Shown piece by piece: positions 25 through 55,593 of a stretch of DNA of 61,759 nucleotides. A program made the position numbers and the translations under genes. Location: assembly GCA_030694005.1 (NCBI GenBank), contig JAUXZG010000084.1, positions 1-61,759 on the forward strand. The letters run 5' to 3'. Under the pieces are notes generated by a model. That model was not told where the DNA came from. It worked only from the letters and a program-made list of their open reading frames with translations, and did not search any database. Each line of letters opens with the position of its first letter. Position 1 is the first letter of the stretch. The DNA is from Desulfobaccales bacterium (GTDB lineage Bacteria; Desulfobacterota; Desulfobaccia; Desulfobaccales; 0-14-0-80-60-11).

Positions 25-915
25 TCATGAGGCTGCCATTTGTGCGTAAGAATCAATGATTTTGGACACCTGACCGGGGGTCAGGCGGCCAAAGGTGTCC
101 TCCCCCACCCGCATGGCCGGAGCCAGAGCGCAACAGCCGATGCACCGCACCACTTCCAGGGTGAAGAGCATATCCTCGGTGGTCTGGCCGTGTTGGATCC
201 CCAATTTCCTTTCCAGTTGGTCCAGCAGGCGGGGTGAGCCTTTGACAAAGCAACCCGTGCCCAGGCAAACATTGATGATATGTTTTCCCCGGGGGGTCAG
301 GCTGAAGGCATTATAGAAACTGGCCACCCGTAAGATTTCCGTCAACGGCACCTTGAGCTCATCCGCCACATGTTCCAGGGAAGCCCGGGGCAGCCAGTTA
401 AAATGCCGGTTGATATCCAGCAAAATGGGCAGCAGGTTGCCGCGCTCGTCCCGGTGGCGGCCGATAATGTCCGCCACCGCGGCTTCCTCGGTGGCCGCCG
501 TATAGGCCGTGCGGGCGCGCGCCTCCTCCTCCGGCAGCTGCACCTCATAACGGATGGGACAGGCGTCCAGGCAGACCCCGCAGCCGGTGCACTTTTCCGG
601 ATTCACATAACGGGGATGCTTCTTAAGGGTAACTTCGAGATTGCCGGGCTCACCCGTAACCTCTTTCAGGTCTGTCAGGGTATGGATTTCGATGTTTGTG
701 TGCCGGCCGACCTCGACCAGTTTGGGGGAGATAATTCACATAGCGCAGTCGTTAGTGGGAAAGGTCTTGTCAATCTGTGCCATGGTGCCGCCGATGGCCG
801 AGCTCTTTTCCACCAGGTGGACATAGTAGCCCGAATTGGCCAGATCCAGCGCGGCCTGCATCCCGGCGATGCCGCCTCCGGCGACCAGTACCGACCCAAG
901 CACTTTTTCGGTCAT
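25..915 (-). CDS. HdrA N-terminal FAD module (selenocysteine-containing) fused to a NuoE-like thioredoxin-fold [2Fe-2S] domain
   Basis: ATG at 915 is preceded by AGGGGG. Fifty-nine codons ([29 protein letters not shown]...[10 protein letters not shown]) run into TGA at 736-738. The same frame then continues [18 protein letters not shown]...[16 protein letters not shown] into track ORF 25-606, which is NuoE-like (CLGTGC...CIGCCALAP). The paralog at 52531-55593 reads TNDCSMCILSPKL, with Cys aligned to the TGA. Confidence 0.75.
703..720 (-). promoter_or_regulatory. Candidate bacterial SECIS hairpin for the TGA at 736-738
   Basis: The minus-strand RNA CUGGUCG-AGGU-CGGCCGG forms a 7-bp stem (2 G-U pairs) with a GGU-containing loop. 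It starts 15 nt after the UGA. Folded by eye only. Confidence 0.45.
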
Positions 916-1374: not shown

Positions 1375-3828
1375 TCACTGCAGGCTATAGTAAGGGGTCC
1401 GGTTGATAAAGATGCGGGAGACCACCCCTTCGCCATTCAGCTCTCTGAGACAGTTGTACGCCTGTTCCTTTTCCACCTCTAGAGCCTGGGCGATGTCGTG
1501 GAGTTGCAACGGCCTGGCTCTCCGCTGCAGCAGGTTGGTGATCCGGGTCCTAAAAAACTCCTCGCTGATGATGTCCGTCAAGGCCTGGTCATAGGCCAGG
1601 GGGTTGGGCATCTGCGAAGGGTAAGTGGTCTCTCCGGGGCAGCGCAGGCTGACCCCCAACACCCAGCGCACCCGGGCGTTATGCAAGGTGTCGTAAGTAG
1701 CCCTGAGCCTATTTAGAGTCGCTTCATCCCTGACGATGGGTCCCAGGCGGTCCATGGTGGCAAGAAAACTCTCCACGGTCCGGACATATTGTTGGGGCTT
1801 GTTCAGATCGCAGTGCGCCAGGGTGATGCGTTCCCTTTCCAAGCCGCATAGAGACAGCAGTTTTTTCAGCAACAAGACCCGGCTCCAGGTATGGTCCAGA
1901 CCGTAACTGTGGTGGCATTCCTCGGGCCGGCAGCCTATGAGTAAAAGACCGTTGGCCCCTTCTAAAAAGGCCCGTCCCATGACCAGGGGGTCAAGCTGGC
2001 CGAGGCATTGCAGCGGCAAGAGGTAAAGCCTGGGGCTGACGGTCAGGCCGCGCAGACCGGCATGGTCCGCGGCCGGGATGCCACTCCACTGGCACCCGAA
2101 ACCGATGACTTCATCGTCGTTGAGCTGCTGCGCCAGGGAAGCTACGGTGGCTTCATGGCGGGCGGTATTGTAAATCTGGGAACTTATGGCCAGATGGGGG
2201 CAGGCCGCGGCGCAGGTGGCGTCCCCCGTGCACACCAGGGGGTCCACTATTCGGGGAGTGCTGCCACCCAAGCCTTCCCACGGTTCGATCGCCCCACAGT
2301 CGCAGATTTCCCGGCAAAGGGTGCAAGAAGTGCACAGGTTCGCGTCCACCTGACAGACATTGAGGACCGCCAGGAGCTTCCCGGCCCTGGCCTTTCCCAA
2401 CAACGCCGCCTTTTTCTTGGCCGTCTGGCGTCCCTGGCGCAGGGCTTCCAGCAAGTCGCAAGGCTGGCGGGCCGAACCCGCGATGGGCAACTTCTCGTCC
2501 AGGGCCACCTCGTGGGGCATGACCATCTGGGGATACCTTTCCAAAAACACGCCTTCGATAACTTTCTTACCCAGAGTGTTGGCCGTCTTGGACGCAGCCG
2601 GACCGATGCGCCAACGGGGCGACAGGACCAGTTGGTCCCAGGGCAGCTCATGCTCCACCTGATCATCAAGACGGGTGAAAGTGAGGTAACCCGACTGGAC
2701 CGAGGGCCGGGTGTTGCCGTCGTAAACAACGAGAGAGATGCCCAGTTCCCGGCCCCGGCGACGCTCTGAAGTACTCAGGGGGAACGAAATCAGGTGGTTA
2801 TACAAAATAGCCATCCGGGCCTGGGGTGAATGCTCCCGGATATAGCTGGCGGTGCGCCAGGCGGCCCGGGCGGAAAGCTGGCCGTAAGGCTGATCCATCT
2901 CCACATCGTTAATCCAGAAAACCAGCCGGTGCTCCGGCGGGCCGTGGAGCCAGATGGACTCCTCCATCTCCCGTTGAGAAAGAACCCGCACCCCATCGTG
3001 GCCGAACTCAGACTCCTGGTCAAGGATCTCGGCGTCCAGGGCGGCGATGATGGTTCCGACCCGGTATTCCTGCGGAGGCTGGTCGGCAAACGAGATGGTG
3101 ACGTGGTATTCTCCCACCCTCCCCAGAACTTTTTCCACCGTGCCGCCGATGATCGTTTGCACCAGGGGGCTGTCGTACACCTCGCCCATAAGCTGCCGGA
3201 GACGGTCGTGGTAATGGCGTTCTCCGGGATAACGCTCATGCAGCCGGCGGAGCTCCTCCTCCATGTCCTTAAAGGGCACCGCGATGATGGTTTTGATCCC
3301 TTGGCGCAAAAGCTCCTGGGCGGCCCCGTAAGTGGCGATGCCCCCGCCCAGAATCATGATGGGTTCGTGAAAATCTATTTTAGTCTCAGAGGGAGTCCCT
3401 ATGGTCCGCAAGCCGGCCAGGGACGCCTTGATCAGCTTGGCCCCTTTCCGGGCCAGGTCGGCCGGCTCCCCAGGGTTTACCTGGGCTACATGGTCCCTCA
3501 GATTGACCATGTCGATCAAGCCTTGTTTGAATCCCAAGCCCTCCAGCTCCTGTTCGAATTTTTTCAGCAGGATGCGGCGTTCACACCCGGCCACCACCAG
3601 GCGATTAAGCTTTTTGCGGGCAATGGCCGCTTTAACTTTCTCCAGGCCGGGTCTTAAGCAGGGGAAAGGCAAGATGCCGATATGGGTAACCACCCCGGGG
3701 TCACGGAGCAGTTTGGCCATGGCCGTTAGGTCAACTTTGGGGGCGATCTTGGGGCCGCACTCGCAGAGAAAGACCCCGCAGCGGACCCCATCAGCCGGTT
3801 TTGGGGGTGATTTTACCGTGTGCATCAT
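1375..3828 (-). CDS. HdrA-like (C-terminal half) / MvhD-like fusion oxidoreductase with a winged-helix-like tail
   Basis: Track ORF 1375-3879. I moved the start to ATG 3828 (GAGGGAGGG Shine-Dalgarno, just after the upstream stop). CGVFLCECGPKIAP matches IGVFVCHCGINIAG of the large HdrA paralog. Also present: a GGGIATYG Rossmann-like motif, two Cys-rich ferredoxin motifs (CTSCTLCREICDC, CTGDATCAAACP), and an MvhD block (VIGFGCQWSG...LLIGCRPEECHHSYG). Confidence 0.8.
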   Translation of the reverse strand: MMHTVKSPPKPADGVRCGVFLCECGPKIAPKVDLTAMAKLLRDPGVVTHIGILPFPCLRPGLEKVKAAIARKKLNRLVVAGCERRILLKKFEQELEGLGFKQGLIDMVNLRDHVAQVNPGEPADLARKGAKLIKASLAGLRTIGTPSETKIDFHEPIMILGGGIATYGAAQELLRQGIKTIIAVPFKDMEEELRRLHERYPGERHYHDRLRQLMGEVYDSPLVQTIIGGTVEKVLGRVGEYHVTISFADQPPQEYRVGTIIAALDAEILDQESEFGHDGVRVLSQREMEESIWLHGPPEHRLVFWINDVEMDQPYGQLSARAAWRTASYIREHSPQARMAILYNHLISFPLSTSERRRGRELGISLVVYDGNTRPSVQSGYLTFTRLDDQVEHELPWDQLVLSPRWRIGPAASKTANTLGKKVIEGVFLERYPQMVMPHEVALDEKLPIAGSARQPCDLLEALRQGRQTAKKKAALLGKARAGKLLAVLNVCQVDANLCTSCTLCREICDCGAIEPWEGLGGSTPRIVDPLVCTGDATCAAACPHLAISSQIYNTARHEATVASLAQQLNDDEVIGFGCQWSGIPAADHAGLRGLTVSPRLYLLPLQCLGQLDPLVMGRAFLEGANGLLLIGCRPEECHHSYGLDHTWSRVLLLKKLLSLCGLERERITLAHCDLNKPQQYVRTVESFLATMDRLGPIVRDEATLNRLRATYDTLHNARVRWVLGVSLRCPGETTYPSQMPNPLAYDQALTDIISEEFFRTRITNLLQRRARPLQLHDIAQALEVEKEQAYNCLRELNGEGVVSRIFINRTPYYSLQ

Positions 3829-3838
3829 TAACCCTCCC

Positions 3839-4477
3839 TCAGTGGGCAAAGCCATGGCCGGTACGCCTGGAGACATCACCCCGCACCAGGTCTAGCCGGG
3901 TGCTCATGGCTCCGGTGGGGCAGACCGTGACACAGCAACCACAGGCGACACAGGCATTGTTAGGGACCCGGTAAGGGGTGTCCAGCTGTTTATTTACCCC
4001 CCGGGAGCCGAAGGTCAGGGCCTGCACCCCCACCACCTCGTTACAGACCGCCACGCAGCGGCCGCAGCGGAGACATTCCTCCTCGGGATCGGTTATGGTA
4101 AAGCGCGTGGCGGTCACCCCATACTCCCGGGCGAGATCCCGGATTTCCTTGGAGGCCGGACAATCAGCCAGGAGCATCTCCAGCACCCACCGCCGCACGT
4201 TTAAAACCCGCTCCGAGTGGGTAAACACCTCGAGTTTTGCTAGGGGCGGGTTGAGACAAGAGGGCATAACCTTGCCCCGTTTGCCATAGCGGACCTCCAC
4301 CACGCACAGGCGGCAGCCCCCCCAGGGCTTGACCGCGGGGTGAAAGCACAGGGTGGGTATGTGGATGTGGTATTGCTCGGCCGTCTCCAGGATGGTCCAG
4401 CCCGGGCGGGCCTGCACCGGCTGGCCGTCGATGGTGAAGTTGATTAAATCATCAGTTTTCTTTTTTTTCGGGCTCAT
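3839..4477 (-). CDS. 2Fe-2S / 4Fe-4S ferredoxin-like protein (NuoG/HndD N-terminal type)
   Basis: Track ORF 3839-4531. The start is set at ATG 4477 (MSPKKKK), which has an AGGAGGTGAA Shine-Dalgarno. Motifs: LCFHP...GGCRLCVVEV...MPSC, then CLRCGRCVAVC and CVACGCCVTVCP. Confidence 0.8.
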   Translation of the reverse strand: MSPKKKKTDDLINFTIDGQPVQARPGWTILETAEQYHIHIPTLCFHPAVKPWGGCRLCVVEVRYGKRGKVMPSCLNPPLAKLEVFTHSERVLNVRRWVLEMLLADCPASKEIRDLAREYGVTATRFTITDPEEECLRCGRCVAVCNEVVGVQALTFGSRGVNKQLDTPYRVPNNACVACGCCVTVCPTGAMSTRLDLVRGDVSRRTGHGFAH

Positions 4478-19312: not shown

Positions 19313-20170
19313 TTACGCCACCAGGGCCAGATTTTGGAGCAATGGCCGGGGGTCCACCAGGTGGCGGACAAACCACTCCTCGTAATCCTTGGCGCCCAGG
19401 GCCAGGGCCAGAACTTCCGAAAAGTGGAAGACGGGAAGCCTCTCCCTGGAGGTGCAACGGATCTCCAGATTGAGCTGGCACATGGCACAGGCGGTGACCA
19501 GACAATGGGCCTTGGCAGCCACGGCGCTGTCGATGATTTCGTTGACCAGGGGGGTGACTATTTCCGGGTCGGTGGCGGAAAGAAAGGAGCCGCAACAGCG
19601 ATGCGTATAAGCCCCGATGATGGGCTCGGCCCCCAAGGCCACCAGAATATCTTCCATTTCGCCCTGGTAATATTTTTCCTTTTCCAGATCCGGGGGGCGA
19701 AACACGGCACAGCCGTAATAGGGCACAAACTTAAGACCCGTAAGGCTCCGTTTGGCGCTCTGTTTCAGGCGGTCCAATCCGAACCGCACCAGCACCTCCA
19801 TAAAGTGCATGATTTTCAAGTCCAAATTGATCGGCCGTCCCCAACGCTCTTCTAAAGAACGGTGGGTTTCCGGATCCTTCTTGAGACAGACCTTGGCATG
19901 CCGCAAATAATGCAGGCAGCGGGGGCACATGGCCACCAGGGGTCTGCCGGCCGGGGCCAGGGACAGGTTGCGGGCCGCCATTCCCAGGCTTAAATTCTTG
20001 CACATGGTTTGCGCGGAGGAGGAGCCGCAGCAGTTCCAGTCGGAAAGTTCGATGAGGTTCAGGCCCAATATTTTGGCAGACTGCATCAGGGACATATTGG
20101 CTTCCGCGGCCGTAGTGGCCATGGAGCAGCCCGGGAAGTATGAGAAGTCAATCTGGTGGTGAAGGCTCAT
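19313..20170 (-). CDS. hdrB: Heterodisulfide reductase subunit B-like (two CCG domains)
   Basis: 285-aa ORF with FPGCS...NCCGSSSA...YYGCAV...CCGSFL...CAMCQLNLE. Confidence 0.88.
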   Translation of the reverse strand: MSLHHQIDFSYFPGCSMATTAAEANMSLMQSAKILGLNLIELSDWNCCGSSSAQTMCKNLSLGMAARNLSLAPAGRPLVAMCPRCLHYLRHAKVCLKKDPETHRSLEERWGRPINLDLKIMHFMEVLVRFGLDRLKQSAKRSLTGLKFVPYYGCAVFRPPDLEKEKYYQGEMEDILVALGAEPIIGAYTHRCCGSFLSATDPEIVTPLVNEIIDSAVAAKAHCLVTACAMCQLNLEIRCTSRERLPVFHFSEVLALALGAKDYEEWFVRHLVDPRPLLQNLALVA

Positions 20171-20763
20171 TTAGACTCCCTCCAGTAGCACTTGAAAAGG
20201 TCGCCGATCTCTTCTTGGGCTTGCACCCGTGACGGCCTCAGGTCCAGCTTGCGCTTGGCCAGCATCTTGAGACCCACGTCCAGATCACTGAGCCAGCGTC
20301 GGGTTTTCACCTTGTAGCGCCACATGATCCCCAGTTTATGGGCGCGACCGTAACGTTCCAGGGACCTGAGCACTTCCTCGTGGAAGTCAAGGATGTTGGG
20401 CTTGGCTATGGCTACCCCTTCCTCCACCGCCATCAGGCGCAAGGTATCCATCACGGCCGCCATGTCGATGCCCATGGGGCACTGGCTGGAACAGGTATGA
20501 CAGCCTACGCAGATCCAGATGGTTTTACATCTCAGGACTTCCTCCCGCATGCCGAACTGCAGCAGGCGCAGGACCAGGTTGGGAGGATAATCCATGGCCC
20601 GGATGAAAGGACAGCCATTGGCGCAGGCGTGGCACTGATAACACCGATTTAGGTCGGTGCCGCTTTTCTCGATAACCTCGGCCGCCAGAAAACCCCGAGG
20701 TTGGCCAACTTCAATAACCGTCCTGGGGGCGGCCGGTTTTGCCAGGGGGGTGGTTTGGCTCAT
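20167..20763 (-). CDS. hdrC: Heterodisulfide reductase subunit C-like (2x[4Fe-4S])
   Basis: 198-aa ORF with CYQCHACANGCP and CVGCHTCSSQCP. It overlaps hdrB by 4 nt. Confidence 0.85.
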   Translation of the reverse strand: MSQTTPLAKPAAPRTVIEVGQPRGFLAAEVIEKSGTDLNRCYQCHACANGCPFIRAMDYPPNLVLRLLQFGMREEVLRCKTIWICVGCHTCSSQCPMGIDMAAVMDTLRLMAVEEGVAIAKPNILDFHEEVLRSLERYGRAHKLGIMWRYKVKTRRWLSDLDVGLKMLAKRKLDLRPSRVQAQEEIGDLFKCYWRESK

Positions 20764-20782
20764 TTCTCGTAAAGTTCCTTGG

Positions 20783-21184
20783 TTAATTAATTTTAGCCAC
20801 TCGGGCTGAGTGGGTATCTGGTGATTTTTCCTGATAATTTTGGATGGCCAGGGCCAGGGCTTCCGCCCCCAGATTGGAGCAGTGCATTTTGTTCGGGGGC
20901 AGACCCCCCAGGGCCTCGGTCACCGTTTGCTTGCTGATCTTTTTGGCTTCTTTAAGTTTCTTGCCTTTGGCCATCTCGCTCACAATGTCGGATACCGCAA
21001 TAGCCGCGACACAGCCAAAAGTCTGGAACTTGACGTCCACCAGACGATCGCCTTTGACCTTGATATAGAAAGTCATCATGTCGCCGCAGACGGGATTGCC
21101 CACTTCGCCGATACCGTCCGCATCTTCGATGACCCCGGCGTTTTTCGGGTTATTAAAATGGTCCATCACGGTTTGGCTGTACAT
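20783..21184 (-). CDS. iscU: IscU/NifU N-terminal-type Fe-S cluster scaffold
   Basis: 133-aa ORF with GNPVCGDMMTFYIKV...FGCVAAIA...MHCSNLGAEAL. Confidence 0.9.
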   Translation of the reverse strand: MYSQTVMDHFNNPKNAGVIEDADGIGEVGNPVCGDMMTFYIKVKGDRLVDVKFQTFGCVAAIAVSDIVSEMAKGKKLKEAKKISKQTVTEALGGLPPNKMHCSNLGAEALALAIQNYQEKSPDTHSARVAKIN

Positions 21185-21185
21185 C

Positions 21186-21617
21186 TTAAGCTTCTTGGCT
21201 GGATGGCCGGGTTTTTTCCATTCTCACCAGATCGGCCAGAGTAATTGAGCGCAATTTTTCAAACATGGCCTGGGCGGCCTCCCGCCAAAGGTGACGGGTG
21301 GGACAGGTGGCGGAACGCCCGCAGACTTCCGCGTGCTCTGAACATTCCACCAGGCTCGTGCCCTGTTCCAAAAGCGCCACGATTTCTCCCACGGAAATCT
21401 CCTCAGGGGGCTTGGCCAGGATGTGACCGCCCTTAGGGCCCCGCACACTTGCCACATAATGGGCCTTTTTCAAGGGAATGATAATTTGTTCCAAATATTT
21501 CGCCGAAATATCCTGACGTTTGGCAATATCTCCCAACCGAATGGGCCCCTGGTTATAATGCTCGGCCATATCCAACATGAGCCGAGTGCCGTAACGACTC
21601 TTGGTGGTAAGTTTCAT
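21186..21617 (-). CDS. Rrf2 family (IscR-like) transcriptional regulator with a Cys cluster
   Basis: Track ORF 21186-21656. The start is set at ATG 21617 (MKLTTKSRYGTRLMLDMA, AGGAGGA Shine-Dalgarno). It has CSEHAEVCGRSATCP. Confidence 0.85.
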   Translation of the reverse strand: MKLTTKSRYGTRLMLDMAEHYNQGPIRLGDIAKRQDISAKYLEQIIIPLKKAHYVASVRGPKGGHILAKPPEEISVGEIVALLEQGTSLVECSEHAEVCGRSATCPTRHLWREAAQAMFEKLRSITLADLVRMEKTRPSSQEA

Positions 21618-21619
21618 GA

Positions 21620-22807
21620 TTATCCTCCTGCGGTCGCCGCCATTTTTTTCCGCCACAGCGGAGAAAAGGACCGCAGTTTTTCCACGGCGGGGGGAAGATG
21701 TTCCAGCAAGTAGTGCACGTCTTCTTCCCGGTTGTCGCGATTCAGCGTAAAGACGATGGACCCCTGGGCCAGATCAGGGCGGATACCGATGGCGCACAGC
21801 ACCGGCGAGACCTTCAAGGCCTTGGAGGCGCAGGCCGAACCCGTGTTGGCATAAATCCCCTGGCGGTTCAGCAGGAAGATCAGGGCTTCGCCTTCGATGC
21901 CCTCAAAACAGAAACTGGCGTGGCCCGGCAGCCTCTCTACCTGATGACCGGTATAAATGAGGTTGGAAATCCCCTCCGTAATCCCGGCAACCAGGAGATG
22001 CCGCAGTCTGGTGAGGTGAGGGACCAGATGGGCCAATTCTTCCCGGGCCAACTCAGCCGCCTTACCCAGACCCACGATGCCGGGCACGTTTTCGGTGCCC
22101 CCCCGCCGGCCGTTTTCCTGGATGCCGCCGTGAATCTGGGGGACCAGGCGCAGCTTGCGGCGAAAATACAGGGCCCCAGTGCCCTTGGGGGCGCCCAGGA
22201 CGGGGCCCGAAAGAGTCAGCAAATCCACGCCTAATTCCTTTACCTCCACCGAGACACTACCCACCGTGGCCACGGCGTCGGTGTGGAAAAGGATTCCCGC
22301 GGCCCGACAAATCGCCGCCAACTCCGCGATGGGTTGGATGGTGCCGATCTCGTTGCTGCCATGCTGGATAGACACCATGACCGTGGCCGGAGTGAGGCTC
22401 CTCTTAAGACGTTCCGGTTCCACCTGGCCGTAACGGTTGACAGGCAGAAAGGTCACTTCAAAATCATGGAACTTTTCCAGGAACCTCGCGGCATTCAGCA
22501 CCGAGTGGTGTTCGATGGCCGAAACCACCAGATGTCTGCCCTTTTTGATATTGGCCAGCGCCGCTCCCTTGACGGCCAGGTTATTGGCTTCGGCGCCGGA
22601 TGAGGTAAAGACTAGCTCCTCGGTTTGGGCGCCGATAAGGTGGGCCACCTTGGTCCTTTGCTCTTCCAAAACCTCTTTGATCTCGGCGCCCAGGTCGTAA
22701 ACCGCGGAGGGATTCCCGAAACGCTCGGTGAAATAGGGAAGCATGGCCTCCAGAACTTCCCGGCGTACGGGGGTCGCGGCCGCATTATCCAAATATACTC
22801 GTTTCAT
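21620..22807 (-). CDS. nifS: Cysteine desulfurase (NifS/IscS class)
   Basis: 395-aa ORF with VYLDNAAATP, SAIEHHSV, a PLP-Lys region, and the active-site SGSACAS. Confidence 0.92.
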   Translation of the reverse strand: MKRVYLDNAAATPVRREVLEAMLPYFTERFGNPSAVYDLGAEIKEVLEEQRTKVAHLIGAQTEELVFTSSGAEANNLAVKGAALANIKKGRHLVVSAIEHHSVLNAARFLEKFHDFEVTFLPVNRYGQVEPERLKRSLTPATVMVSIQHGSNEIGTIQPIAELAAICRAAGILFHTDAVATVGSVSVEVKELGVDLLTLSGPVLGAPKGTGALYFRRKLRLVPQIHGGIQENGRRGGTENVPGIVGLGKAAELAREELAHLVPHLTRLRHLLVAGITEGISNLIYTGHQVERLPGHASFCFEGIEGEALIFLLNRQGIYANTGSACASKALKVSPVLCAIGIRPDLAQGSIVFTLNRDNREEDVHYLLEHLPPAVEKLRSFSPLWRKKMAATAGG

Positions 22808-22816
22808 AACCCCGCC

Positions 22817-23071
22817 TCAGTGGACCTTCTTGATGTAAAGCTTATAGTAATCTTCGTCTTCAGCTTCACAGATACCGACGAACTCTTGCCCATGCTTGGC
22901 GCACCAGGCCGGAATGTCTTCCAGGGCCCCGTCATAGTCGGTCAAGATTTCCAACACCTGCCCCTGTTTTAAATCCTTGATCAACTCGGTGGGCTCCAGA
23001 AGATGCATGGGACACACGCGGTAGACTAAATCCGCGGTGGCATCGGCCTTACATTCTTTTAAGAACTTCAT
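22817..23071 (-). CDS. TusA/SirA-like sulfur carrier protein
   Basis: 84-aa ORF with VCPMHLL (a CPxP-type motif) and VLEILTDYDGALEDIP. Confidence 0.75.
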   Translation of the reverse strand: MKFLKECKADATADLVYRVCPMHLLEPTELIKDLKQGQVLEILTDYDGALEDIPAWCAKHGQEFVGICEAEDEDYYKLYIKKVH

Positions 23072-23149
23072 TATGTTGTCCTCACAGGTCTAAGGAAGCC
23101 CCTGGCATCCTTATTTACAGTATTCCGATATTATATATTGTTTAAGTAT

Positions 23150-23177
23150 ACAATAATCTTTCTTTGCTCGAAGTCAA
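23150..23177 (-). promoter_or_regulatory. Sigma-70-like promoter of the tusA-nifS-rrf2-iscU-hdrCB operon with an overlapping palindrome
   Basis: The minus strand reads TTGACT-N16-TATTGT. The -10 is one arm of the inverted repeat TATTGT-N8-ACAATA (23136-23155). Confidence 0.45.
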
Positions 23178-23188
23178 GGGGGTTTCTG

Positions 23189-23246
23189 AAAAAACCGGGG
23201 TCGGGCCTAGCCGCGGCCAGACTGGGGTTCTCGGCTACCTCCCCGG
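23189..23246 (-). terminator. Structured intrinsic terminator after the NIL-ferredoxin gene
   Basis: On the minus strand, nested stems CCGGGG...CCCCGG and TAGCCG...CGGCTA are followed by a U6 tract (A-tract 23189-23194 on the plus strand). Confidence 0.5.
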
Positions 23247-23372
23247 CCCCTTCCCTGAATTGACGAGTTGGCCGGATTGGCCGCAGCTTGCCGGACAGAG
23301 GCCGCCGGCCCCAAACTTCAGGCAACGCTGAGGGCCCTCTCGGCTTCCCCCCTCCCGGCCTTCCCCGCCTAA

Positions 23373-23783
23373 TTAATCGAAAAGTATCTCTATAGCGAGG
23401 TAAGGACAGACCCTCAGGCAAAGCTCACAGGCGATGCAGCGTTCCTGGTCAAATGACACCGTCATGCTGGCCCGGTCGACCCCCAGCGCGTGGGTGGGAC
23501 AGGGGGCCAGGCAGGCGGTACAATGGATGCACCGCTCTTCATGCCATCTGACCTCTCGGGCCAGAGGCTCCACGCCCACCCCTAACTCCCCCAAGAAACC
23601 CATTGCGGCCTCGAGCTTCTTGGGGCTGCCGCCCAACTCCACTACCATACTGCCCCATTCCCTGGGGGTAATGCGGGCCCTGAGAATGTTGACCACCACC
23701 CCGTAATCCTGGATCAATTTGTAGGTAACGGGCTGGTCAATGAGATGCGGCGGGAAATTCAGCACCACTTTCTTTTTAAGCAT
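23373..23783 (-). CDS. NIL domain - 2x[4Fe-4S] ferredoxin protein
   Basis: 136-aa ORF. The N-terminus is NIL-like (KVVLNFPPHLIDQPVTYKLIQDYGVVVNILRA). The C-terminus carries CIHCTACLAPCP and CIACELCLRVCP. Confidence 0.85.
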   Translation of the reverse strand: MLKKKVVLNFPPHLIDQPVTYKLIQDYGVVVNILRARITPREWGSMVVELGGSPKKLEAAMGFLGELGVGVEPLAREVRWHEERCIHCTACLAPCPTHALGVDRASMTVSFDQERCIACELCLRVCPYLAIEILFD

Positions 23784-23816
23784 ATGCCTTCCTCAGCAAA
23801 ATTGGCTTGACCATTA

Positions 23817-25037
23817 TCAGCCTGCCTTTGGGGCTTCCCACGGCCGTTCTTTCAGGGGCCTGAAGGCGTACCCGGAGTCAAGGGAAGGAAGGGCCGCCAC
23901 GGCCTCGGTCAATAAAAAACTCCCTTCTTTAATCCACGCTTTCAAGATCAGGGCAATTTCCCGGGCCCGGACATAGGAGGACAGCCCGGCCGTGACCACC
24001 TTCTTCTGGCCCACCGTAATTTCTCCGGTTTTGAGTTGGGCCACCGTTACTTCGGCCAGGATTTCCGGTTTGCAGTTGGGGTAGGACTCGCTGTAGTCCA
24101 CCACCGGGGCAATGATGTCGGCGTCGCTAACCGAGGTGAACCGGAGGATCTCCTCATCCAGGATGGGGATGGGAATGCCGAGCCCCAAGGTCACCGTCAC
24201 CCCATATCCGGTAAAAGACGCGCCCCTGAGCCACCTGGAGCTCATTTTTTTCAGGTCCCCGGTAACCGCCAGGGTGCCGGCGCCCATTTTCGGCACTCCC
24301 AGCTCCGTGCGGCGCACCCCGGGATTATGCTGGGTGCCGTGGCTCACCACATAGCCGGTGTTGCCGCCCAGGAAGATCCTGGTGCCCACCCCTATGGTTT
24401 TATACAGGGGATCATTAAGGAGAGGACTGAGCCGGCCCGCGGTGCAATAGTTGGCGTTGCGCATCTTGGGCTGGAGAACTCCCATGTAGGTATAGATCAC
24501 TCGATCCGAGAGGTTCACGGCCACGTTGTAGTTCTGATAGGCGTTGCGCATGTTAAAGAGAACCGCCTCGTTCATATCCTCCAGGCGGATCCAGGTGTCC
24601 AGAATTTTGCGGGGATAACAGTCGGTGCCGTAAGTAGTGGCGGTAAGCCGCACATCCTTTCCCGAGACCAGGTCTTCTATAATGTGGCCGCCGCCATAAG
24701 CAAATTTCCCCGGGAACACCTTGTTGCGGGGATCGTCTTCGGGAAGCGCGGTGGCGCCCAGGAAAAGGTCCACCGCGGCGAAGCCGGCATAGGCCGGGAC
24801 CTCGTTTATGGTGACCCGGCCGCCGCCCATCTTGATCCGGGGATTGGCGTGACCCACATTGAAATAGGCGCCGGAGGAGCACATGGGGGCAAAGGTGCCG
24901 GTGGTGACCACATCCACCTCTTTGGCGGCCTGTTTGACACCCTTTTGCTTTACCACCTCAATGATCTCTTCGGCCGTGAAGACTACGGCCCGGCCCTGTC
25001 TGATCTTCTCGTTGATTTCGTTGATTGTCTTGGCCAT
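23817..25037 (-). CDS. COG1900 (DUF39) homocysteine biosynthesis-type protein
   Basis: 406-aa ORF with VVFTAEEIIE...VDVVTTGTFAPMCSSGAYFN. It is paired with a downstream NIL-ferredoxin gene, as in the methanogen MA1821/MA1822 arrangement. Confidence 0.8.
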   Translation of the reverse strand: MAKTINEINEKIRQGRAVVFTAEEIIEVVKQKGVKQAAKEVDVVTTGTFAPMCSSGAYFNVGHANPRIKMGGGRVTINEVPAYAGFAAVDLFLGATALPEDDPRNKVFPGKFAYGGGHIIEDLVSGKDVRLTATTYGTDCYPRKILDTWIRLEDMNEAVLFNMRNAYQNYNVAVNLSDRVIYTYMGVLQPKMRNANYCTAGRLSPLLNDPLYKTIGVGTRIFLGGNTGYVVSHGTQHNPGVRRTELGVPKMGAGTLAVTGDLKKMSSRWLRGASFTGYGVTVTLGLGIPIPILDEEILRFTSVSDADIIAPVVDYSESYPNCKPEILAEVTVAQLKTGEITVGQKKVVTAGLSSYVRAREIALILKAWIKEGSFLLTEAVAALPSLDSGYAFRPLKERPWEAPKAG

Positions 25038-25074
25038 GAGTAACTCCCTTGATACTGATTAACTTCTCCTGCGC

Positions 25075-26166
25075 CTAGCAACTCGGTTTTCCGGTCAAAG
25101 TTAACATGCGCTTAAGAGCGATCTTTGCCTCGGTTTTTATGGGTTCGGACACCGTGACTATATTAGCCTCCCCCGGGCTTTCCAGGGTGGCCAGGAGGTT
25201 TTCCAGATTGATTCTGAACATATTGGGACACAAGGAGTAATGCAGGTCCAGGACCTCTTTGTCCGGGTGTTCCAGGGCCAGCCGGTGCACCAGGTTGATT
25301 TCCGTGCCCACAATGATCGTGGTTTGAGGGGCTGCCCTGGCCACATAGTCTACGATGAAGCCGGTGGAACCGCAGGCGTCCGCCAGGGCCACCACTTCCT
25401 GGGTACACTCCGGATGCACCACCATCTTGGCCTGGGGGAAGGCCTCCTTCATTGCCAAGACCTGATCAACCTGAAAGCGGGTATGGACATGGCAATAACC
25501 ATCCCACAGGATCAGCCTGGCCCGGCGGATAGTTTCAGGACGGTTCCCGCCCAGCGGCCGGTCCGGGTCCCAGACGATCATGTCCTCGGGTTTGAGACCC
25601 AGTTGATTCCCGGTATTGCGGCCCAGGTGCTGGTCGGGGAAGAAAAACACCTTGGCAGCTCTTCCCAAGCCCCACCGCAGCGCCGCCAGGGCGTTGGCGG
25701 AGGTGCAGACCGTGCCTCCGTGCCGCCCGCAAAAGGCCTTGAGCCGGGCATCCGAATTCATGTACACCACGGGAACGATGCTTCCCTCTCCGGCGATGTC
25801 GGTCAGCTCCTCCCAGGCCGTTTCCACGGTATCCAGGGCCGCCATGTCCGCCATCAGGCACCCGGCTCTAGGGTTGGGGATTTGTACGGTTTGCTGTGGT
25901 TGGGCGAGAATTGCGGCGCTTTCCGCCATGAAATGCACACCGCAAAAAACGATGAACCGGGCGTCACAGTTCGCCGCGGCCTTCTGGGACAGGCCGAAAG
26001 AATCACCTCGATAATCCCCCAAGGCCACGATCTCTTTCCGTTGATAATGGTGAGTCAAGATCAGGAGCTCTTTCCCCAGGGCCTCCTTTTTGGCGCGGAT
26101 CTCTTCTCCCAGCTCAGCTTCATCCAGAGAGACCTGCCCTTCATCTCGCCGATAGGCCCGGTTCAT
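25075..26166 (-). CDS. nadA: Quinolinate synthase
   Basis: Track ORF 25075-26214. The start is set at ATG 26166 (MNRAYRR). It has LILTHHYQRKEIVALGDYRGDSFGLS, FCGVHFMAESAAIL, and HPEC. Confidence 0.85.
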   Translation of the reverse strand: MNRAYRRDEGQVSLDEAELGEEIRAKKEALGKELLILTHHYQRKEIVALGDYRGDSFGLSQKAAANCDARFIVFCGVHFMAESAAILAQPQQTVQIPNPRAGCLMADMAALDTVETAWEELTDIAGEGSIVPVVYMNSDARLKAFCGRHGGTVCTSANALAALRWGLGRAAKVFFFPDQHLGRNTGNQLGLKPEDMIVWDPDRPLGGNRPETIRRARLILWDGYCHVHTRFQVDQVLAMKEAFPQAKMVVHPECTQEVVALADACGSTGFIVDYVARAAPQTTIIVGTEINLVHRLALEHPDKEVLDLHYSLCPNMFRINLENLLATLESPGEANIVTVSEPIKTEAKIALKRMLTLTGKPSC

Positions 26167-26242
26167 TAAAGTCTTCCTTTGGAAAGGGGATTGTCCGCCC
26201 CATCCCAAAACCATGAGTCGCCTTAAAATTAATACTACACTT

Positions 26243-26265
26243 ATATATACAATTATTGTATATAT
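26243..26265. promoter_or_regulatory. 23-bp perfect palindrome in the divergent nadA / cysE control region
   Basis: ATATATACAAT-T-ATTGTATATAT has perfect 11-bp arms. A related half-site, TTATACAAATAAT, follows immediately. Confidence 0.55.
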
Positions 26266-26388
26266 TATACAAATAATTTATCTGTCAAGAAAAATGGTGG
26301 GGACGGTTTCTTGCCCCAAAAGGAACCTCCAAGTGACCCAGCAGGTTAGTGCCTGCCGGTTGCCGGGTTAAGGAGAGGGGAAGCCAAA

Positions 26389-27348
26389 ATGGACAAATTG
26401 GGTGCTCTGCAAGTGGAGCGATGCAAAACCGAGGTTAAGGCCGATCTAGACTCTCGGCAGGAAATTCCAGAGATTGTTGATAGGCTAATAAAATCATGCC
26501 GGGGGCAGGAAGGCTTCGACCACGTGGGCCCGGAACCCATTCCCTCCCGGGAAGCGGTGATAGATCTTATTCATCGGGGCTGTCGTCTCCTTTACCCGGG
26601 CTACTTTAATCGCACCCGGGTGGACGAGACTAACCTGGGCTTTTACCTGGGCCAGGAAGCCGTGGCTCTTTTTGAAGATCTTTCCCAGCAAATTACCCTG
26701 TCCCTCCGCCATGAGTGTCTGCGCTATGGCCTGCCTTGCATCCATTGCCAGGCTCGCGGTCAGGAAGAGGCGATCCGCCTCATGCGGGAACTTCCCCGTC
26801 TCAGAGCCCTCCTGGCCAAGGATGTCCGCGCCGCTTATGAGGGGGACCCGGCAGCCAAAGGCTATGACGAAATCATCTTCTGCTATCCGGGGCTGTTCGC
26901 GGTAACCGTTTACCGGCTGGCTCACCAGCTTTTAAAGCAAGAGGTGCCTCTGCTGCCGCGCATCATGACCGAATACGCCCACAGTCAGACCGGCATAGAC
27001 ATCCACCCCGGAGCCCGCATCGGGGAGAGTTTCTTCATGGATCACGGCACCGGGGTGGTGATTGGGGAGACCACGGAAATCGGTGACCGGGTGCGCATAT
27101 ACCAGGGGGTGACCCTGGGGGCCCTGTCCCTTCCCAGGGAGGCGGTGGACTCCCTGAGGGGACAAAAAAGGCACCCCACCGTCCAGGATGACGTGATCAT
27201 CTATGCCGGAGCCACCATCCTGGGGGGAGAGGCGGTGATCGGCGCCCGTTCAGTCATCGGCGGCAATGTGTGGATTACGGAGTCGGTGCCTCCCGACACC
27301 AAGGTCTTCCTGAAAAAGCCCGAGTTGATTTATAAAGGCTCAAGCTGA
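26389..27348 (+). CDS. cysE: Serine O-acetyltransferase (long N-terminal form)
   Basis: 319-aa ORF with DIHPGARIGESFFMDHGTGVVIGETTEIGDRVRIYQGVTLG hexapeptide repeats. Confidence 0.9.
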   Translation: MDKLGALQVERCKTEVKADLDSRQEIPEIVDRLIKSCRGQEGFDHVGPEPIPSREAVIDLIHRGCRLLYPGYFNRTRVDETNLGFYLGQEAVALFEDLSQQITLSLRHECLRYGLPCIHCQARGQEEAIRLMRELPRLRALLAKDVRAAYEGDPAAKGYDEIIFCYPGLFAVTVYRLAHQLLKQEVPLLPRIMTEYAHSQTGIDIHPGARIGESFFMDHGTGVVIGETTEIGDRVRIYQGVTLGALSLPREAVDSLRGQKRHPTVQDDVIIYAGATILGGEAVIGARSVIGGNVWITESVPPDTKVFLKKPELIYKGSS

Positions 27349-27469
27349 AGACCCGGGGAAGGATTCAGGGGTAATGTGCCCGTGGGGATTGGGGCTGCAT
27401 CTGTGGACCTATGGCTGACTTCTAAGTGCTGACCGTGGAAAGCTAATGGCGACGGAAGTGAGGGGAGGA

Positions 27470-28399
27470 ATGGACCGAATTTTTGCCGATATTCTGCACA
27501 CCGTGGGTTCCACGCCCCTGGTTCGCTTGCATGCGGTAACCAAGGGGCTTAAAGCCACCATCCTGGCCAAGCTGGAGATGCATAACCCCTTGGGGAGCGT
27601 CAAAGACCGCATCGGCGTATCCATGATCCAGGCAGCCGAAACCCAGGGCCTGATTCACCGCAACACCTTGATTGTGGAGCCCACCAGCGGCAATACGGGT
27701 ATCTCCCTGGCCTTTGTGTGCGCTGCCAAAAAATATCGCCTGGTTCTGACCATGCCGGATACCATGAGTGTGGAGAGAAGAAAGTTGTTGAAACACTTGG
27801 GCGCCGAATTAGTCCTCACCCCAGGGGCAGAGGGCATGACCGGGGCCCTAAACCGGGCCCGAGAAATACTGGCTAATACTAAAGGCGCCTATATGCCCAA
27901 CCAATTTGCCAATCCCGCCAATCCCGAGGTTCACCGCCGGACCACCGCCCAGGAAATCTGGCGGGCCACCGGGGGAGGCATCGATTTTTTGGTGGCCGGA
28001 GTGGGCACGGGAGGTACCATAACCGGGGTGGCCGAAGTAATTAAACGGCGCAAGCCCTCCTTTAAAGCGGTGGCCGTGGAACCCGCGGAATCTCCGGTGC
28101 TATCCGGAGGTCAGCCTGGACCTCATAAGATTCAGGGAATAGGGGCGGGGTTCATTCCCGAGGTATTAAATACCAGGATTATTGAGGAAATCATTACCGT
28201 CAGCAGCGATCAGGCCCTGGCAACCGCCAGAGAGGTGGCCAAACAAGAAGGCATCCTTTGCGGCATCTCCTCTGGGGCCGCGGCCTATGCCGCCCTGGAA
28301 TTAGCCAGACGCCCCGAGAACCACGGCAAGCAGATCGTGGTAATCTTCCCCAGCACCGGGGAACGATATTTGAGCACGGAGCTCTTCCAAGACCAGTAA
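27470..28399 (+). CDS. cysK: Cysteine synthase A (O-acetylserine sulfhydrylase)
   Basis: Track ORF 27446-28399. The start is set at ATG 27470 (GAGGGGAGG Shine-Dalgarno). It has [19 protein letters not shown] and GTGGTITG. Confidence 0.92.
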
Positions 28400-28883: not shown

Positions 28884-29060
28884 TTATCTCAGACGTTGAT
28901 CAATATTGCCGGGGCCGCCACACTCCGGCAGGTAGCAACTCACATCCTTAAACTTACATGGCACCCGGCACGACGGGCAGAGGTCCGGCGGACACGACGC
29001 CTGGAGGGTAAAGGTGCAATTACCGCACCTCCAGAACATTTGCGCTGCTGCTTGAGTCAT
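28884..29060 (-). CDS. 58-aa Cys-rich zinc-ribbon / rubredoxin-like small protein
   Basis: ATG 29060 lies 8 nt after AAGGAGA and encodes MTQAAAQMFWRCGNCTFTLQASCPPDLCPSCRVPCKFKDVSCYLPECGGPGNIDQRLR. It is just below the 60-aa track cutoff. Confidence 0.6.
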   Translation of the reverse strand: MTQAAAQMFWRCGNCTFTLQASCPPDLCPSCRVPCKFKDVSCYLPECGGPGNIDQRLR

Positions 29061-29397
29061 GGCGCTGGTCTCCTTAGCTTTTATTGGTTACCGCCTTCTC
29101 AAACGATGTCGGGTATAATGCTCCTGTAGGGATCTTCATCCGGAGCATTTCCACAATCATGTGGCGTCCTGCCAAGGGCCCCATGTCTGACCGCGATGGT
29201 CGGATAGGCCAATAAAGCAAGGTCTCCATAGGGGTTGCTAGGGTCTTAAGTTTCTATGGTGCTGATTTTTCCCCGTGCTTTCCCGGAAGGGAAATTATAT
29301 ACACTAATATGATATATATAAGCTTAATAATATTTATAAAATAAAATGTCAAGGTTAAAAATAAGAGAAGGCTAATTTCTCCCTACCCCTGGTCTAG

Positions 29398-51217: not shown

Positions 51218-52030
51218 TTACATCGGCTTGGTCTGCAGGGTGGATTCCTCTCCCAAAACCTTCCAGGGAGAAACCGCGGTGGGTGAGCCGGTCTCGTAGT
51301 CGAACAGGTCTTTCACCAGAGCGTTGGCCTTTTTATAGAGCACCCTTAAAGGGATGTCCGCCGGGCAGGCCTCTTCACACAGGCCGCAGTCGATGCAGCG
51401 CCCGGCCATGTGGATGGCCCGCACCAGCTGGAAGATGGTGTCCGGCGGCACCATGCCGGTGCTCATCAAATCCGGGTGCTCCAGGCTGCACTCTTTGCAG
51501 AAGCACATGGGGCAGACGTCCCGGCAGCCGTAACATTTGACGCAGCGCCCAAAATGGCCCAGCCACTCCTTCAAGGCGTCCGCCTCGGCCAGGCCCTCCA
51601 CGCGGGTCACCCGCTGGCTTTGGGGCACCGGCCGGCATTTTTCCCCATAATCAATAACCGAGGGGAAAGGGCCGGAGCATTCGCAATAATCGGCCTGGTC
51701 CTGCGGGCAGGCGACCCCCACCAGGACCACCTGGTCCGGGTCCAACTGCCCCCATTTATACAGCTCGATGAGCCCCCGCTCGTCGCAGCCCCGCACCTGG
51801 ATGGCGAAGGTTTCTTTAGGGTAGCGGGCCGCCACCTGCAGGAGCAGCTTGTCCAGAGGGTAGCGGGCGTCCCCCGGGGGCACGATGGCTTCGTCCACCT
51901 CGCTTAAGCGGTCCTTCGTAAAGAAGTGGGGTAGGGGATGGCCCTCCACCATCTTGTAGCCGATATAGCCGCCGGCCTTGCCTTCCGCCAACAGTTTCCG
52001 GACCTTGTCGCGTAACCTTTCCATGGGCAT
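51218..52030 (-). CDS. 4Fe-4S dicluster protein associated with HdrA/MvhD (AsrA / sulfhydrogenase-beta-like, tentative)
   Basis: 270-aa ORF with CVKCYGCRDVCPMCFCKEC and CIDCGLCEEACP. It is the last gene of the hdrA-mvhD operon. Confidence 0.65.
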   Translation of the reverse strand: MPMERLRDKVRKLLAEGKAGGYIGYKMVEGHPLPHFFTKDRLSEVDEAIVPPGDARYPLDKLLLQVAARYPKETFAIQVRGCDERGLIELYKWGQLDPDQVVLVGVACPQDQADYCECSGPFPSVIDYGEKCRPVPQSQRVTRVEGLAEADALKEWLGHFGRCVKCYGCRDVCPMCFCKECSLEHPDLMSTGMVPPDTIFQLVRAIHMAGRCIDCGLCEEACPADIPLRVLYKKANALVKDLFDYETGSPTAVSPWKVLGEESTLQTKPM

Positions 52031-52062
52031 TTATCCTTTGAGAACTATCTGGGAGTCCTGCT

Positions 52063-52494
52063 TTAAGCCGCCCGGGCCGCCTGTTTCAGGGGGGAGGGGC
52101 CCATTTTCTGGATCTTGGCGGTGAAGTCCCGCACCGTCTGGGCGAATTTGGGGCCTTCGGCGGCGGAGATCCAATCCAGGTGCAGCCTGCCTTCCTCCAT
52201 GCCCACGAACTTCATGAGGTCCTGGAGGAAGCGCATGCGCTTGATGGTCATGTAATTGCCTTTAAGATAATGGCAGTCGCCGATATGGCAGCCGCCGATG
52301 AGGACGCCGTCGGCCCCCTTTTGGAAGGCCCGCAGTACATGGTGCGGCGATACCGACCCGGAGCACATTACCCGGATGACCCGAATGTGGGGAGGGTATT
52401 GCAGACGGCTGACGCCGGCCAGGTCGGCGCCGGCGTAAGTGCACCAGTTACACAGAAATGCCAGGATTCTGGGTTCAAAATTGCTGTCGGCCAT
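52063..52494 (-). CDS. mvhD: MvhD-like hydrogenase/Hdr-associated [2Fe-2S] subunit
   Basis: 143-aa ORF with ILAFLCNWCTYAGADLAG...VMCSGSV...LIGGCHIGDCHY. Confidence 0.9.
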   Translation of the reverse strand: MADSNFEPRILAFLCNWCTYAGADLAGVSRLQYPPHIRVIRVMCSGSVSPHHVLRAFQKGADGVLIGGCHIGDCHYLKGNYMTIKRMRFLQDLMKFVGMEEGRLHLDWISAAEGPKFAQTVRDFTAKIQKMGPSPLKQAARAA

Positions 52495-52530
52495 CTTTCG
52501 TCCCTTGGTTTTTAAGTTGAGTCTTAAGCT

Positions 52531-55500: not shown

Positions 55501-55593
55501 GGCCAGGTCCAGGGCCGCCTGCACTCCGGCGATGCCCGCGCCCACCACCATCACCGCGCCTACGGGTTTACTTCCCTGCTTTTTTGCGCTCAT
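52531..55593 (-). CDS. hdrA: Large HdrA-like FAD/Fe-S oxidoreductase (two tandem HdrA-type modules, C-terminal 2x[4Fe-4S])
   Basis: 1020-aa ORF with [46 protein letters not shown], a second Rossmann motif (VIGGGVAGMEAALGLADQG), and CSGCQACVEVCP...CKGCGTCAATCP. Confidence 0.9.
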   Translation of the reverse strand: MSAKKQGSKPVGAVMVVGAGIAGVQAALDLANSGFYVYVVEKQTGIGGVMAALDKTFPTNDCSMCILSPKLVECGRHLNIEILAPAQVKGISGEPGNFTVKVKQPARYIDPAKCIACGICAQKCPKKVPDEFNQGLAPRKSAYVLYPQTVPLKYAIDAATCLYFKKGGKCKACEKFCPTGAVVFDDQDKERDIQVGAVILAPGFKIFDPTPYASYHYTAFPNVVTSMEFERILSASGPFEGHLVRPSDHKEPKKVAWLQCVGSRDLHRCDNSHCSAVCCMYAIKEAVIAKEHSKNGLEATIFFMDMRTMGKDFEKYYWRAEEEQGVRFVRSRIHTVDPVPGTDDVQIRYIDEEGNIKDEVFDMLVLSVGLETSPDVMELARTLGVDLNTNKFAQTSPFTPVSTSRPGVFVCGAFQGPKDIPQSVMEASASASAASALLTAARFSLARKKPEFPERDVSQEPPRIGVFVCHCGINIAGVIDVEAVRDYAKTLPFVEYVENNLFSCSQDTQELIKERIKEHHLNRVVVASCTPRTHEPLFQETLREAGLNRYLFELANIRDQGSWVHMDVPELATKRAKDQVRMSVSKVALQQPLVEFSLPITKVGLVIGGGVAGMEAALGLADQGFKVHLVEKKDFLGGHALELNHAWTGEAIKPFVDKLVKRVTNHPKIEVHLNSELTEVTGFVGNFKSTVTTQGRDTAVEHGTAVIAIGGHPYKPTEYLYKENPRVFLALEMDQAMREKNPLVMGAKSAVFIQCVGSREPERPYCSRVCCTHSVESAVKLKELNPDMDVYILYRDMRTYGLRENLYKEAREKGVMFIRFDLDSKPKVEQTADGGLKVTVLDHVLRLPISIHPEVLTLASAIIVKDQEKLAKMFKVPLNNEGFFLEAHMKLRPVDFATEGVFVAGLAHYPKPLDESIAQAKAAAARAAVILSQESIRAGGVVAIVDPMLCSGCQACVEVCPFGAITYKEDEAVAEVNQALCKGCGTCAATCPSECITLLGFSHKQIYAQVDQALSEEAAG

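Follow-up and report, generated by a model that had tools for sequence, protein, structure and literature searches.

A soluble oxidoreductase of the heterodisulfide reductase BC (HdrBC) type is predicted among iron–sulfur (Fe-S) and sulfur-trafficking genes in a 61,759-nucleotide (nt) stretch from a Desulfobaccales bacterium (assembly GCA_030694005.1, contig JAUXZG010000084.1), hereafter the window. The gene pair hdrC-hdrB closes a six-gene cluster, tusA-nifS-rrf2-iscU-hdrC-hdrB, and we consider it very probable that hdrCB truly belongs to this sulfur/Fe-S gene set and is regulated together with it. As to its role, sequence comparison gives about even chances that HdrCB is a persulfide/disulfide reductase serving NifS–IscU sulfur mobilization. 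New here is the placement of an HdrBC module within a biosynthetic Fe-S/sulfur operon and regulon: full-text literature searches returned no paper linking HdrBC with nifS/iscU, COG1900 or a cysteine desulfurase, and the statement in a first-pass annotation of this DNA that the arrangement could not be assigned to a described system still holds.

All six genes lie on the minus strand and, like the others discussed here, were taken from an open reading frame (ORF) listing and family scans. In order of reading they encode a TusA-like sulfur carrier (22817–23071, 84 residues; PF01206, 58.8 bits), a NifS-type class-V cysteine desulfurase (21620–22807, 395 residues; PF00266, 261 bits; TIGR03402, 461 bits, cut-off 531), an IscR-like regulator of the Rrf2 family (21186–21617, 143 residues from the ATG at 21617; PF02082, 143 bits), an IscU/clostridial-type NifU scaffold (20783–21184, 133 residues; PF01592, 158 bits; TIGR03419, 183.1 versus a cut-off of 187.9), an HdrC-like protein (20167–20763, 198 residues; two [4Fe-4S] motifs, CX2CX2CX3CP in both cases) and an HdrB-like protein (19313–20170, 285 residues; two CCG domains, matching PF02754 twice). 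The desulfurase and U-type scaffold form a pair whose NifS and NifU_clost equivalog scores fall just under the cut-offs. All 26 carrier orthologues compared keep both C20, which lies in a CPMH motif, and C57. The same strand carries, upstream, nadA for quinolinate synthase, a [4Fe-4S] enzyme (25075–26214; PF02445, 321 bits; TIGR00550, 285.5 versus a cut-off of 262.9), a COG1900/DUF39 (HcyBio) gene for the enzyme that incorporates sulfur in homocysteine synthesis (23817–25037; PF01837, 502 bits) and a gene for a NIL-domain protein with a 2x[4Fe-4S] ferredoxin part (NIL-Fd; 23373–23783; PF09383 and Fer4 families). Family scans upheld every gene named in the first-pass annotation, and its gene order stands.

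The cluster is tightly packed. Read from the sequence, the spacings are 9 nt (tusA–nifS), 2 nt (nifS–rrf2), 1 nt (rrf2–iscU) and 19 nt (iscU–hdrC), and hdrC and hdrB then overlap by 4 nt as ATGA, an overlap repeated in 35 of 36 loci; the gaps are as tiny or overlapping as originally described. This packing predicts a single transcription unit, from tusA to hdrB, behind one promoter. A promoter scan places a TTGACT-N16-TATTGT site on the minus strand at 23177–23150 (−35 element TTGACT at 23177–23172), forming with an operator of the form TATA-N9-TATA (23131–23153) a control region at 23131–23177, and an equivalent promoter precedes tusA in related loci too. An internal promoter for hdrC was considered and rejected: the 19-nt iscU–hdrC gap yielded no promoter call, and this gap is short in all orthologues (median 16 nt, maximum 89 nt across 26 loci), making it unlikely that the pair is expressed separately from within the operon. 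Between NIL-Fd and tusA lies a 300-nt GC-rich spacer, in which the minus-strand segment 23178–23372 ends in a U6 tract and is a possible terminator of the nadA-COG1900-NIL-Fd unit. The spacer folds with −93.7 kcal/mol, no better than shuffled sequences (z = −0.46), and a terminator scan of it made no call; of the terminator and promoter first proposed between the two groups, the promoter was recovered and the terminator is no more than plausible. The gene order is no accident of assembly, since it is repeated in more than 20 other genome bins and on a 483-kb contig where an independent gene call with precomputed Pfam labels reads NadA-HcyBio-NIL/Fd ... TusA-Aminotran_5-Rrf2-NifU_N-Fer4-CCG, in the same order.

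We followed this linkage through relatives. Searching 5.8 billion proteins brought up more than 120 metagenome-derived clusters with at least 75% identity; where a source is named, it is Desulfobaccales, Thermodesulfobacteriota or 'Deltaproteobacteria'. A scan of species-representative genomes gave 78 loci (33–83% identity), on which homologues of the window genes were placed by tblastn and from which an HdrB tree was built; an extra sample of 401 genomes of the phylum contributed loci L085 and L086. Neighbour assignments rest on tblastn with the window proteins and crude ORF calling, and the relatives are all metagenome bins whose close kin are not independent. The HdrB of the window falls in a clade of 35 members (Shimodaira–Hasegawa-like approximate likelihood ratio test support 98), in 26 of which hdrCB lies directly behind nifS/iscU; of the remainder, six lie behind COG1900/NIL-Fd, one behind rrf2 alone, one at a contig end and one among other neighbours. 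An HdrA-like gene within 6 kb of hdrB was found in none of the 35. Among the bins with the operon is L058, labelled Desulfobacca acetoxidans, a species that is in culture. Neighbourhood analysis of the clade thus places hdrCB with Fe-S and sulfur genes, and adjacency to hdrA is not the normal state from which the window departs.

Most of the 35 orthologues are close relatives (71–84% identity), and many of them represent a single inheritance event, as would be expected had hdrCB been captured once behind iscU in a Desulfobaccales ancestor and passively inherited since, with no functional meaning. The history of the operon speaks against such passive linkage. Seven ortholog loci without nifS/iscU do not represent a different ancestral state, because they carry deletion scars of tusA, nifS or iscU: a TusA fragment (residues 43–65) 60 nt before hdrC in L004 and L007, a remnant of the IscU C terminus in L009, C-terminal NifS fragments and a truncated IscU flanking an intact rrf2 in L019, L020 and L006, and decayed remnants of NifS and IscU in L001. 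The operon has been split or has decayed in at least five lineages, and hdrCB persists; the promoter and operator are kept ahead of it in L004, L007, L009 and L006, and control elements have survived at least five separate deletion events. The ratio of nonsynonymous to synonymous substitution rates (dN/dS) for hdrB is 0.11–0.20 in split-versus-intact pairs and 0.105–0.145 in intact pairs, one very shallow pair being noisier; by this measure the gene is under purifying selection after the splits. The tight and conserved gene spacing argues in the same direction.

Linkage to sulfur genes also recurs outside the clade. In a Desulfobacterales-type clade at 45–58% identity, six loci have a sulfur context: iscU-nifS-hdrC-hdrB in L044 and L052, hdrCB-iscU-nifS-cysE-cysK in L046, hdrCB-iscU-nifS in L086, cysE-hdrCB in L050 and cysK-hdrCB in L085. 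These loci share 45–51% identity with the window, and their nifS and iscU are only 41–50% identical to those of the window and belong to another paralogue type. Hence hdrCB joined nifS-iscU or cysE/cysK independently, in at least four different gene orders. Set against these independent arrangements with a different nifS/iscU type, and against the retained control region and the constraint on hdrB, a single passive capture appears very improbable.

The operator extends this gene set beyond the operon. In 27 of 30 aligned tusA promoter segments, the hdrCB-only loci included, a cTTGACa box precedes an inverted repeat of the form TATA-N9-TATA. A symmetrized 23-nt matrix built from these sites and scanned over the whole 2.6-Mb genome exceeds 18 bits at only about 20 positions, and three of the five best lie in the window. 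The two top-ranked matches are on other contigs, upstream of mnmA-mtaB (C249) and of a PhnD-like/sigma-54 regulator/type III SQR selenoprotein cluster (C233). Third is the tusA promoter itself (23131–23153), and fourth, outside the training set, is a perfect 23-bp palindrome at 26243–26265 (25.9 bits) in the spacer between nadA and the divergent plus-strand genes cysE (serine O-acetyltransferase, 26389–27348; NF041874, 157.5 versus a cut-off of 150; TIGR01172, 167 bits) and cysK (cysteine synthase A, 27446–28399; TIGR01139, 457 versus 351). Of 14 equivalent cysE<>nadA/COG1900 spacers, none of them used for training, 13 contain a site that scores above 18 bits. The divergence of cysE-cysK from nadA is as first described, and the shared control region first suggested for cysE-cysK is borne out in that nadA-COG1900-NIL-Fd and cysE-cysK share the operator of the tusA operon. 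The fifth match, and third of the window (29297–29319, 24.4 bits), is divergent from Sec-msrA and sits beside a cTTGACa −35 box pointing toward a minus-strand gene (28884–29060) for a 58-residue rubredoxin/zinc-ribbon-like protein with nine cysteines, a probable member of the regulon. A 57%-identical homologue lies directly upstream of hdrC in the split locus L019 (6984–7157) behind its own TTGAC/TATA-rich promoter, and we regard the 58-residue protein as a candidate small redox partner or electron carrier of the regulon.

The regulator encoded within the operon looks IscR-like. All 29 orthologues have C92, C99 and C105, spaced as in IscR; the IscR-type histidine (H109 in the window protein) is present in only four of the 29. 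Matches to the models of IscR and CymR both score under their cut-offs. We infer that this Rrf2 protein binds the TATA-N9-TATA operator, where it would report Fe-S or cysteine status. Membership of mnmA-mtaB in the regulon is tentative: the operator stands 73 nt upstream of mnmA, the gene for tRNA 2-thiouridine synthase, which mtaB follows (C249:21858–24694), and among five relatives it is weakly conserved, reaching 18 bits or more in one and about 17 in two more. In E. coli, TusA feeds MnmA. The cluster on C233 (16100–20620) encodes a PhnD-like binding protein, a sigma-54 HAMP/GAF regulator, a receiver-like protein and the type III SQR selenoprotein. A cluster of this type follows hdrB in six relatives (L009, L010, L022, L023, L026 and L027), its counterpart in the window's own genome being on another contig; no operator above 16 bits was found between hdrB and the PhnD-like gene in the relatives. 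In the window itself, hdrB is followed downstream by an AT-rich islet with a tRNA fragment, a pattern suggestive of rearrangement. As for nadA, its place at the head of the COG1900/NIL-Fd unit is conserved in about ten loci, and the genome holds a second copy (C74:6888–7742, 35% identical). That quinolinate synthase is a labile [4Fe-4S] enzyme may in part account for its place in a sulfur regulon.

In HdrB proteins, noncubane clusters carry out disulfide reduction. The HdrB of the window aligns end to end with HdrB of 5ODC and 7BKB, and all ten CCG cysteines are accounted for: C15, C47–C48, C82/C85, C154, C192–C193 and C228/C231 match 5ODC chain B. These ten are invariant in 16 relatives. An AlphaFold model of HdrB, built from 16 relatives, has a predicted local distance difference test score of 79.1 and a predicted template modelling (TM) score of 0.80, and its six best matches in the PDB are all HdrB chains (TM-score 0.81–0.85), at an identity of only 22–25% to the solved proteins. 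HdrC matches Fer4_8/Fer4_17, falls below the cut-offs of the HdrC models and aligns to HdrC chains of the PDB with an E-value of 8e-14. On this evidence hdrC-hdrB is by family a soluble HdrBC-type iron–sulfur oxidoreductase, with two CCG sites in HdrB of the kind that holds noncubane [4Fe-4S] clusters and two further [4Fe-4S] clusters predicted in HdrC.

Within the operon, HdrB would use two electrons to reduce sulfane sulfur derived from cysteine, yielding the sulfide for cluster building. A NifS- or IscU-bound persulfide would be the likeliest substrate, with TusA and free cysteine as further possible carriers; alternatively, HdrB might re-reduce leftover disulfides. HdrC would take up the electrons from a ferredoxin-like donor, for which NIL-Fd, the 58-residue cysteine-rich protein and an HdrA–MvhD module encoded elsewhere in the window are candidates. 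HdrCB would in this way fill the role played elsewhere by the ISC (iron–sulfur cluster) ferredoxin or by the redox domain of full-length NifU. This proposal is attractive because the scaffold is of the short NifU type and lacks a redox domain, because the 94.7%-complete genome contains no ISC-type ferredoxin above cut-off (the best match to TIGR02007, 41.8 versus 132, lies inside a 661-residue frame) and because the neighbouring modules, NifS/TusA and DUF39, handle persulfides that need two electrons. In a narrower version HdrCB would be the missing reductase of minimal NifS–IscU Fe-S assembly in strict anaerobes, replacing that ferredoxin or redox domain; we put this version forward tentatively, as possible rather than probable.

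Several observations weigh against a dedicated role in NifS–IscU sulfur mobilization. In the clade at 45–58% identity, 15 of 21 loci have unrelated neighbours, named by eye as cytidylate-kinase-like, FemAB-like, ArgS, malic enzyme and SelD, many of the crude ORF calls there being spurious. TusA was not detected next to the distant hdrCB-nifS-iscU or cysE/cysK-hdrCB arrangements and is not a universal partner of hdrCB. Among five split genomes, four have an intact tusA-nifS-rrf2-iscU on another contig, without hdrCB (NifS 74–78% identical), and in the fifth no orthologue of the window-type NifS was found. It follows that hdrCB needs no coupling in cis to tusA-nifS-iscU, having been kept and constrained behind the same control region. 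The genome also encodes at least eight HdrA-like genes, one of them in the HdrA–MvhD module, which leaves room for a classical HdrABC complex formed in trans. Finally, the curated models are missed by a wide margin (TIGR03288, 95.8 versus 345; TIGR03290, 64.9 versus 160; the best model on the HdrB side is MFR SdhE, 133 versus 500), and with scores this far under the equivalog cut-offs for CoB-CoM HdrB and HdrC, a substrate cannot be transferred by homology. Lineages of the Desulfobaccales type are not known to make coenzyme M (CoM) or coenzyme B (CoB). The coupling of hdrBC to a desulfurase, a TusA carrier and a scaffold, as first proposed, holds for packing and linkage; it does not hold for TusA as a constant partner, nor as an obligatory arrangement in cis.

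The room left for HdrA has to be weighed in its own right. Within 15 kb of hdrCB the window contains no HdrA-like gene, the nearest being at 1375–3879 and 52531–55593; the absence of HdrA that was first noted is correct for the neighbourhood and does not extend to the window, where a minus-strand module at 51218–55593, 32 kb from the operon and without hdrBC, encodes a double HdrA (52531–55593, 1,020 residues), MvhD (52063–52494, 143 residues; PF02662, 185 bits) and a 270-residue protein (51218–52030). In loci of Actinomycetota and Acidobacteriota, homologues of all three are physically linked to hdrCB, as in L069, whose MvhD and 270-residue counterparts are 66% and 43% identical to those of the window, and the most distant HdrB clade (Actinomycetota, Acidobacteriota and Desulfofundulus; 33–40% identity) reads hdrC-hdrB-hdrA(double)-mvhD in 13 of 16 loci. 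HdrCB could accordingly provide the B and C subunits of a classical flavin-based HdrABC(-MvhD) complex, supplied with HdrA–MvhD in trans and acting on a disulfide of energy metabolism, such as that of DsrC or of some thiol cofactor; its position in an isc-type operon would then reflect only its four Fe-S clusters and the benefit of co-expression with the assembly machinery. The excess of HdrA-like genes over small hdrCB pairs, of which the genome has only two, fits this explanation, as does a split-operon locus (L081:3810–9175) in which an HdrA-like gene, 51% identical to the double HdrA of the window, follows tusA-nifS-rrf2-iscU about 70 nt after iscU. On the strength of that one locus, where no mvhD was detected and HdrA identity is 51%, we did not adopt hdrA as a hidden operon member. 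Across the many genomes and rearrangements of the 35-member clade, however, hdrA never comes within 6 kb, hdrCB has repeatedly joined nifS/iscU/cysEK and not genes of energy metabolism, and the sulfur-regulon operator is kept after the splits. Hitch-hiking on cluster supply would not predict recurrence in four gene orders. We think this explanation unlikely in its exclusive form; an HdrABC–MvhD complex formed in trans may coexist with a substrate in sulfur trafficking.

The same regulon data bear on whether HdrCB instead serves cysteine and homocysteine synthesis and not cluster assembly. It might act as a low-molecular-weight persulfide/disulfide reductase (on cysteine persulfide, cystine or S-sulfocysteine) that keeps the cysteine pool usable, or as a reductant or sulfur-release partner of DUF39/NIL-Fd. 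The direct succession of hdrCB to cysE (L050) or cysK (L085), its adjacency to iscU-nifS-cysE-cysK (L046 and L052) and the common operator on cysEK and nadA-DUF39-NIL/Fd are all consistent with this, and DUF39 carries a persulfide in a homocysteine pathway that needs a two-electron reductive step (PMC5764234). In six split loci hdrCB still adjoins COG1900-NIL-Fd; such adjacency is the default result of an internal deletion and is weak evidence. Against a role confined to these pathways, 11 of the 35 ortholog loci have the tusA-to-hdrB operon without COG1900/NIL-Fd within 6 kb, and the D. vulgaris pathway comprises DUF39, NIL/Fd and COG2122, the word 'heterodisulfide' occurring nowhere in its description (PMC5764234). 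We hold such a restriction doubtful, and favour reduction of persulfides or disulfides in NifS–IscU sulfur mobilization to the degree given at the outset.

Related modules are found throughout the genome, and the set in the window is one of several paralogous sulfur-mobilization modules. Such genes lie on contigs C94, C43, C104, C142, C173 and C138; they comprise three more copies of nifS, of which two adjoin an iscU, as well as extra copies of COG1900 (60% identical) and NIL-Fd (44%) and an Rrf2 paralogue (73%) whose neighbour is a truncated iscU. The second hdrC-hdrB pair (C47:9284–10737; 61% and 67% identical, respectively) belongs to a paralogue clade at 62–67% identity that has other neighbours. 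A surE-like gene precedes it, and trxB-trxA and metF-like genes converge on it (named by eye); in relatives a gene for S-adenosylmethionine decarboxylase (TIGR03330) follows the C47-type pair, as it also follows the pair in L055. Elsewhere in the window, the minus-strand gene at 1375–3879 encodes an 834-residue HdrA-related protein fused to an MvhD domain, beside an N-terminal HdrA segment (502–894, minus strand) with one interrupting TGA that could be a selenocysteine codon. A minimal SufC–SufB pair (56609–58533, plus strand) is divergent from the double-HdrA module.

Anaerobes very commonly encode HdrBC-like proteins, the majority of which, methanogenesis aside, have no assigned substrate. 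The locus bears on the source of electrons that turn persulfide into cluster sulfide in the minimal NifS–IscU systems of strict anaerobes, and through its clear operator it delimits a compact sulfur/Fe-S regulon in a lineage that is uncultured yet abundant in the environment. If HdrCB were indeed the missing reductase, an HdrBC-type enzyme would for the first time have a biosynthetic and non-respiratory role; if the regulatory prediction is right, an IscR-like regulon would take in the synthesis of NAD, cysteine and homocysteine and perhaps the thiolation of tRNA.

Among known systems, the HdrABC–MvhAGD complex of methanogens (5ODC) and its Fdh–Hdr–Fmd relative (7BKB) have the same two-subunit architecture, with the HdrB motif CX31-39CCX33-37CXXC twice and two [4Fe-4S] motifs in HdrC. 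They differ in context: the window locus has Fe-S and cysteine genes around it and no adjacent hdrA, mvhD or hydrogenase genes, and CoM-S-S-CoB is not an expected substrate in a host of the Desulfobaccales type. The pathway of DUF39 (COG1900) and NIL/ferredoxin uses the same two proteins that are encoded immediately upstream of the operon, apparently in the same regulon, and a comparable persulfide and reductive sulfur chemistry, although its published components include no Hdr-like member (PMC5764234). Closer in presumed substrate, protein-bound sulfane sulfur and not a cofactor heterodisulfide, is sHdr: a TusA-type carrier is genetically linked to its HdrBC-like proteins, which take protein-bound sulfur from TusA/DsrE3 (PMC11094781). 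That system, hdrC1B1A-hyp-hdrC2B2, comprises two hdrBC pairs together with DsrE3 and lipoate-binding proteins such as LbpA and runs in the oxidative direction, for dissimilatory oxidation of sulfur, whereas the window has a single hdrCB without adjacent hdrA and with NifS, IscU and Rrf2 as partners.

Precedents for CCG enzymes that act on protein-bound sulfur are sHdr and DsrK. DsrK resembles HdrB as a CCG-domain, noncubane-cluster enzyme that releases sulfide from protein-bound sulfur, and differs in being a fused HdrD-type protein, membrane-anchored through DsrM and fed by quinol; HdrCB is predicted to be soluble, has two subunits and has no DsrC adjoining. As part of DsrMK(JOP), DsrK reduces the DsrC trisulfide. 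In the ISC pathway, the ISC ferredoxin reduces the persulfide, and iscRSUA-hscBA-fdx is under the control of IscR. The operon of the window is similar to it in combining an Rrf2 protein with three cluster-ligand cysteines, a desulfurase and scaffold, a palindromic operator and a dedicated redox protein. The TATA-N9-TATA operator appears unlike the IscR sites of E. coli, the regulator gene comes third and not first, and the redox protein is HdrCB in place of a [2Fe-2S] ferredoxin.

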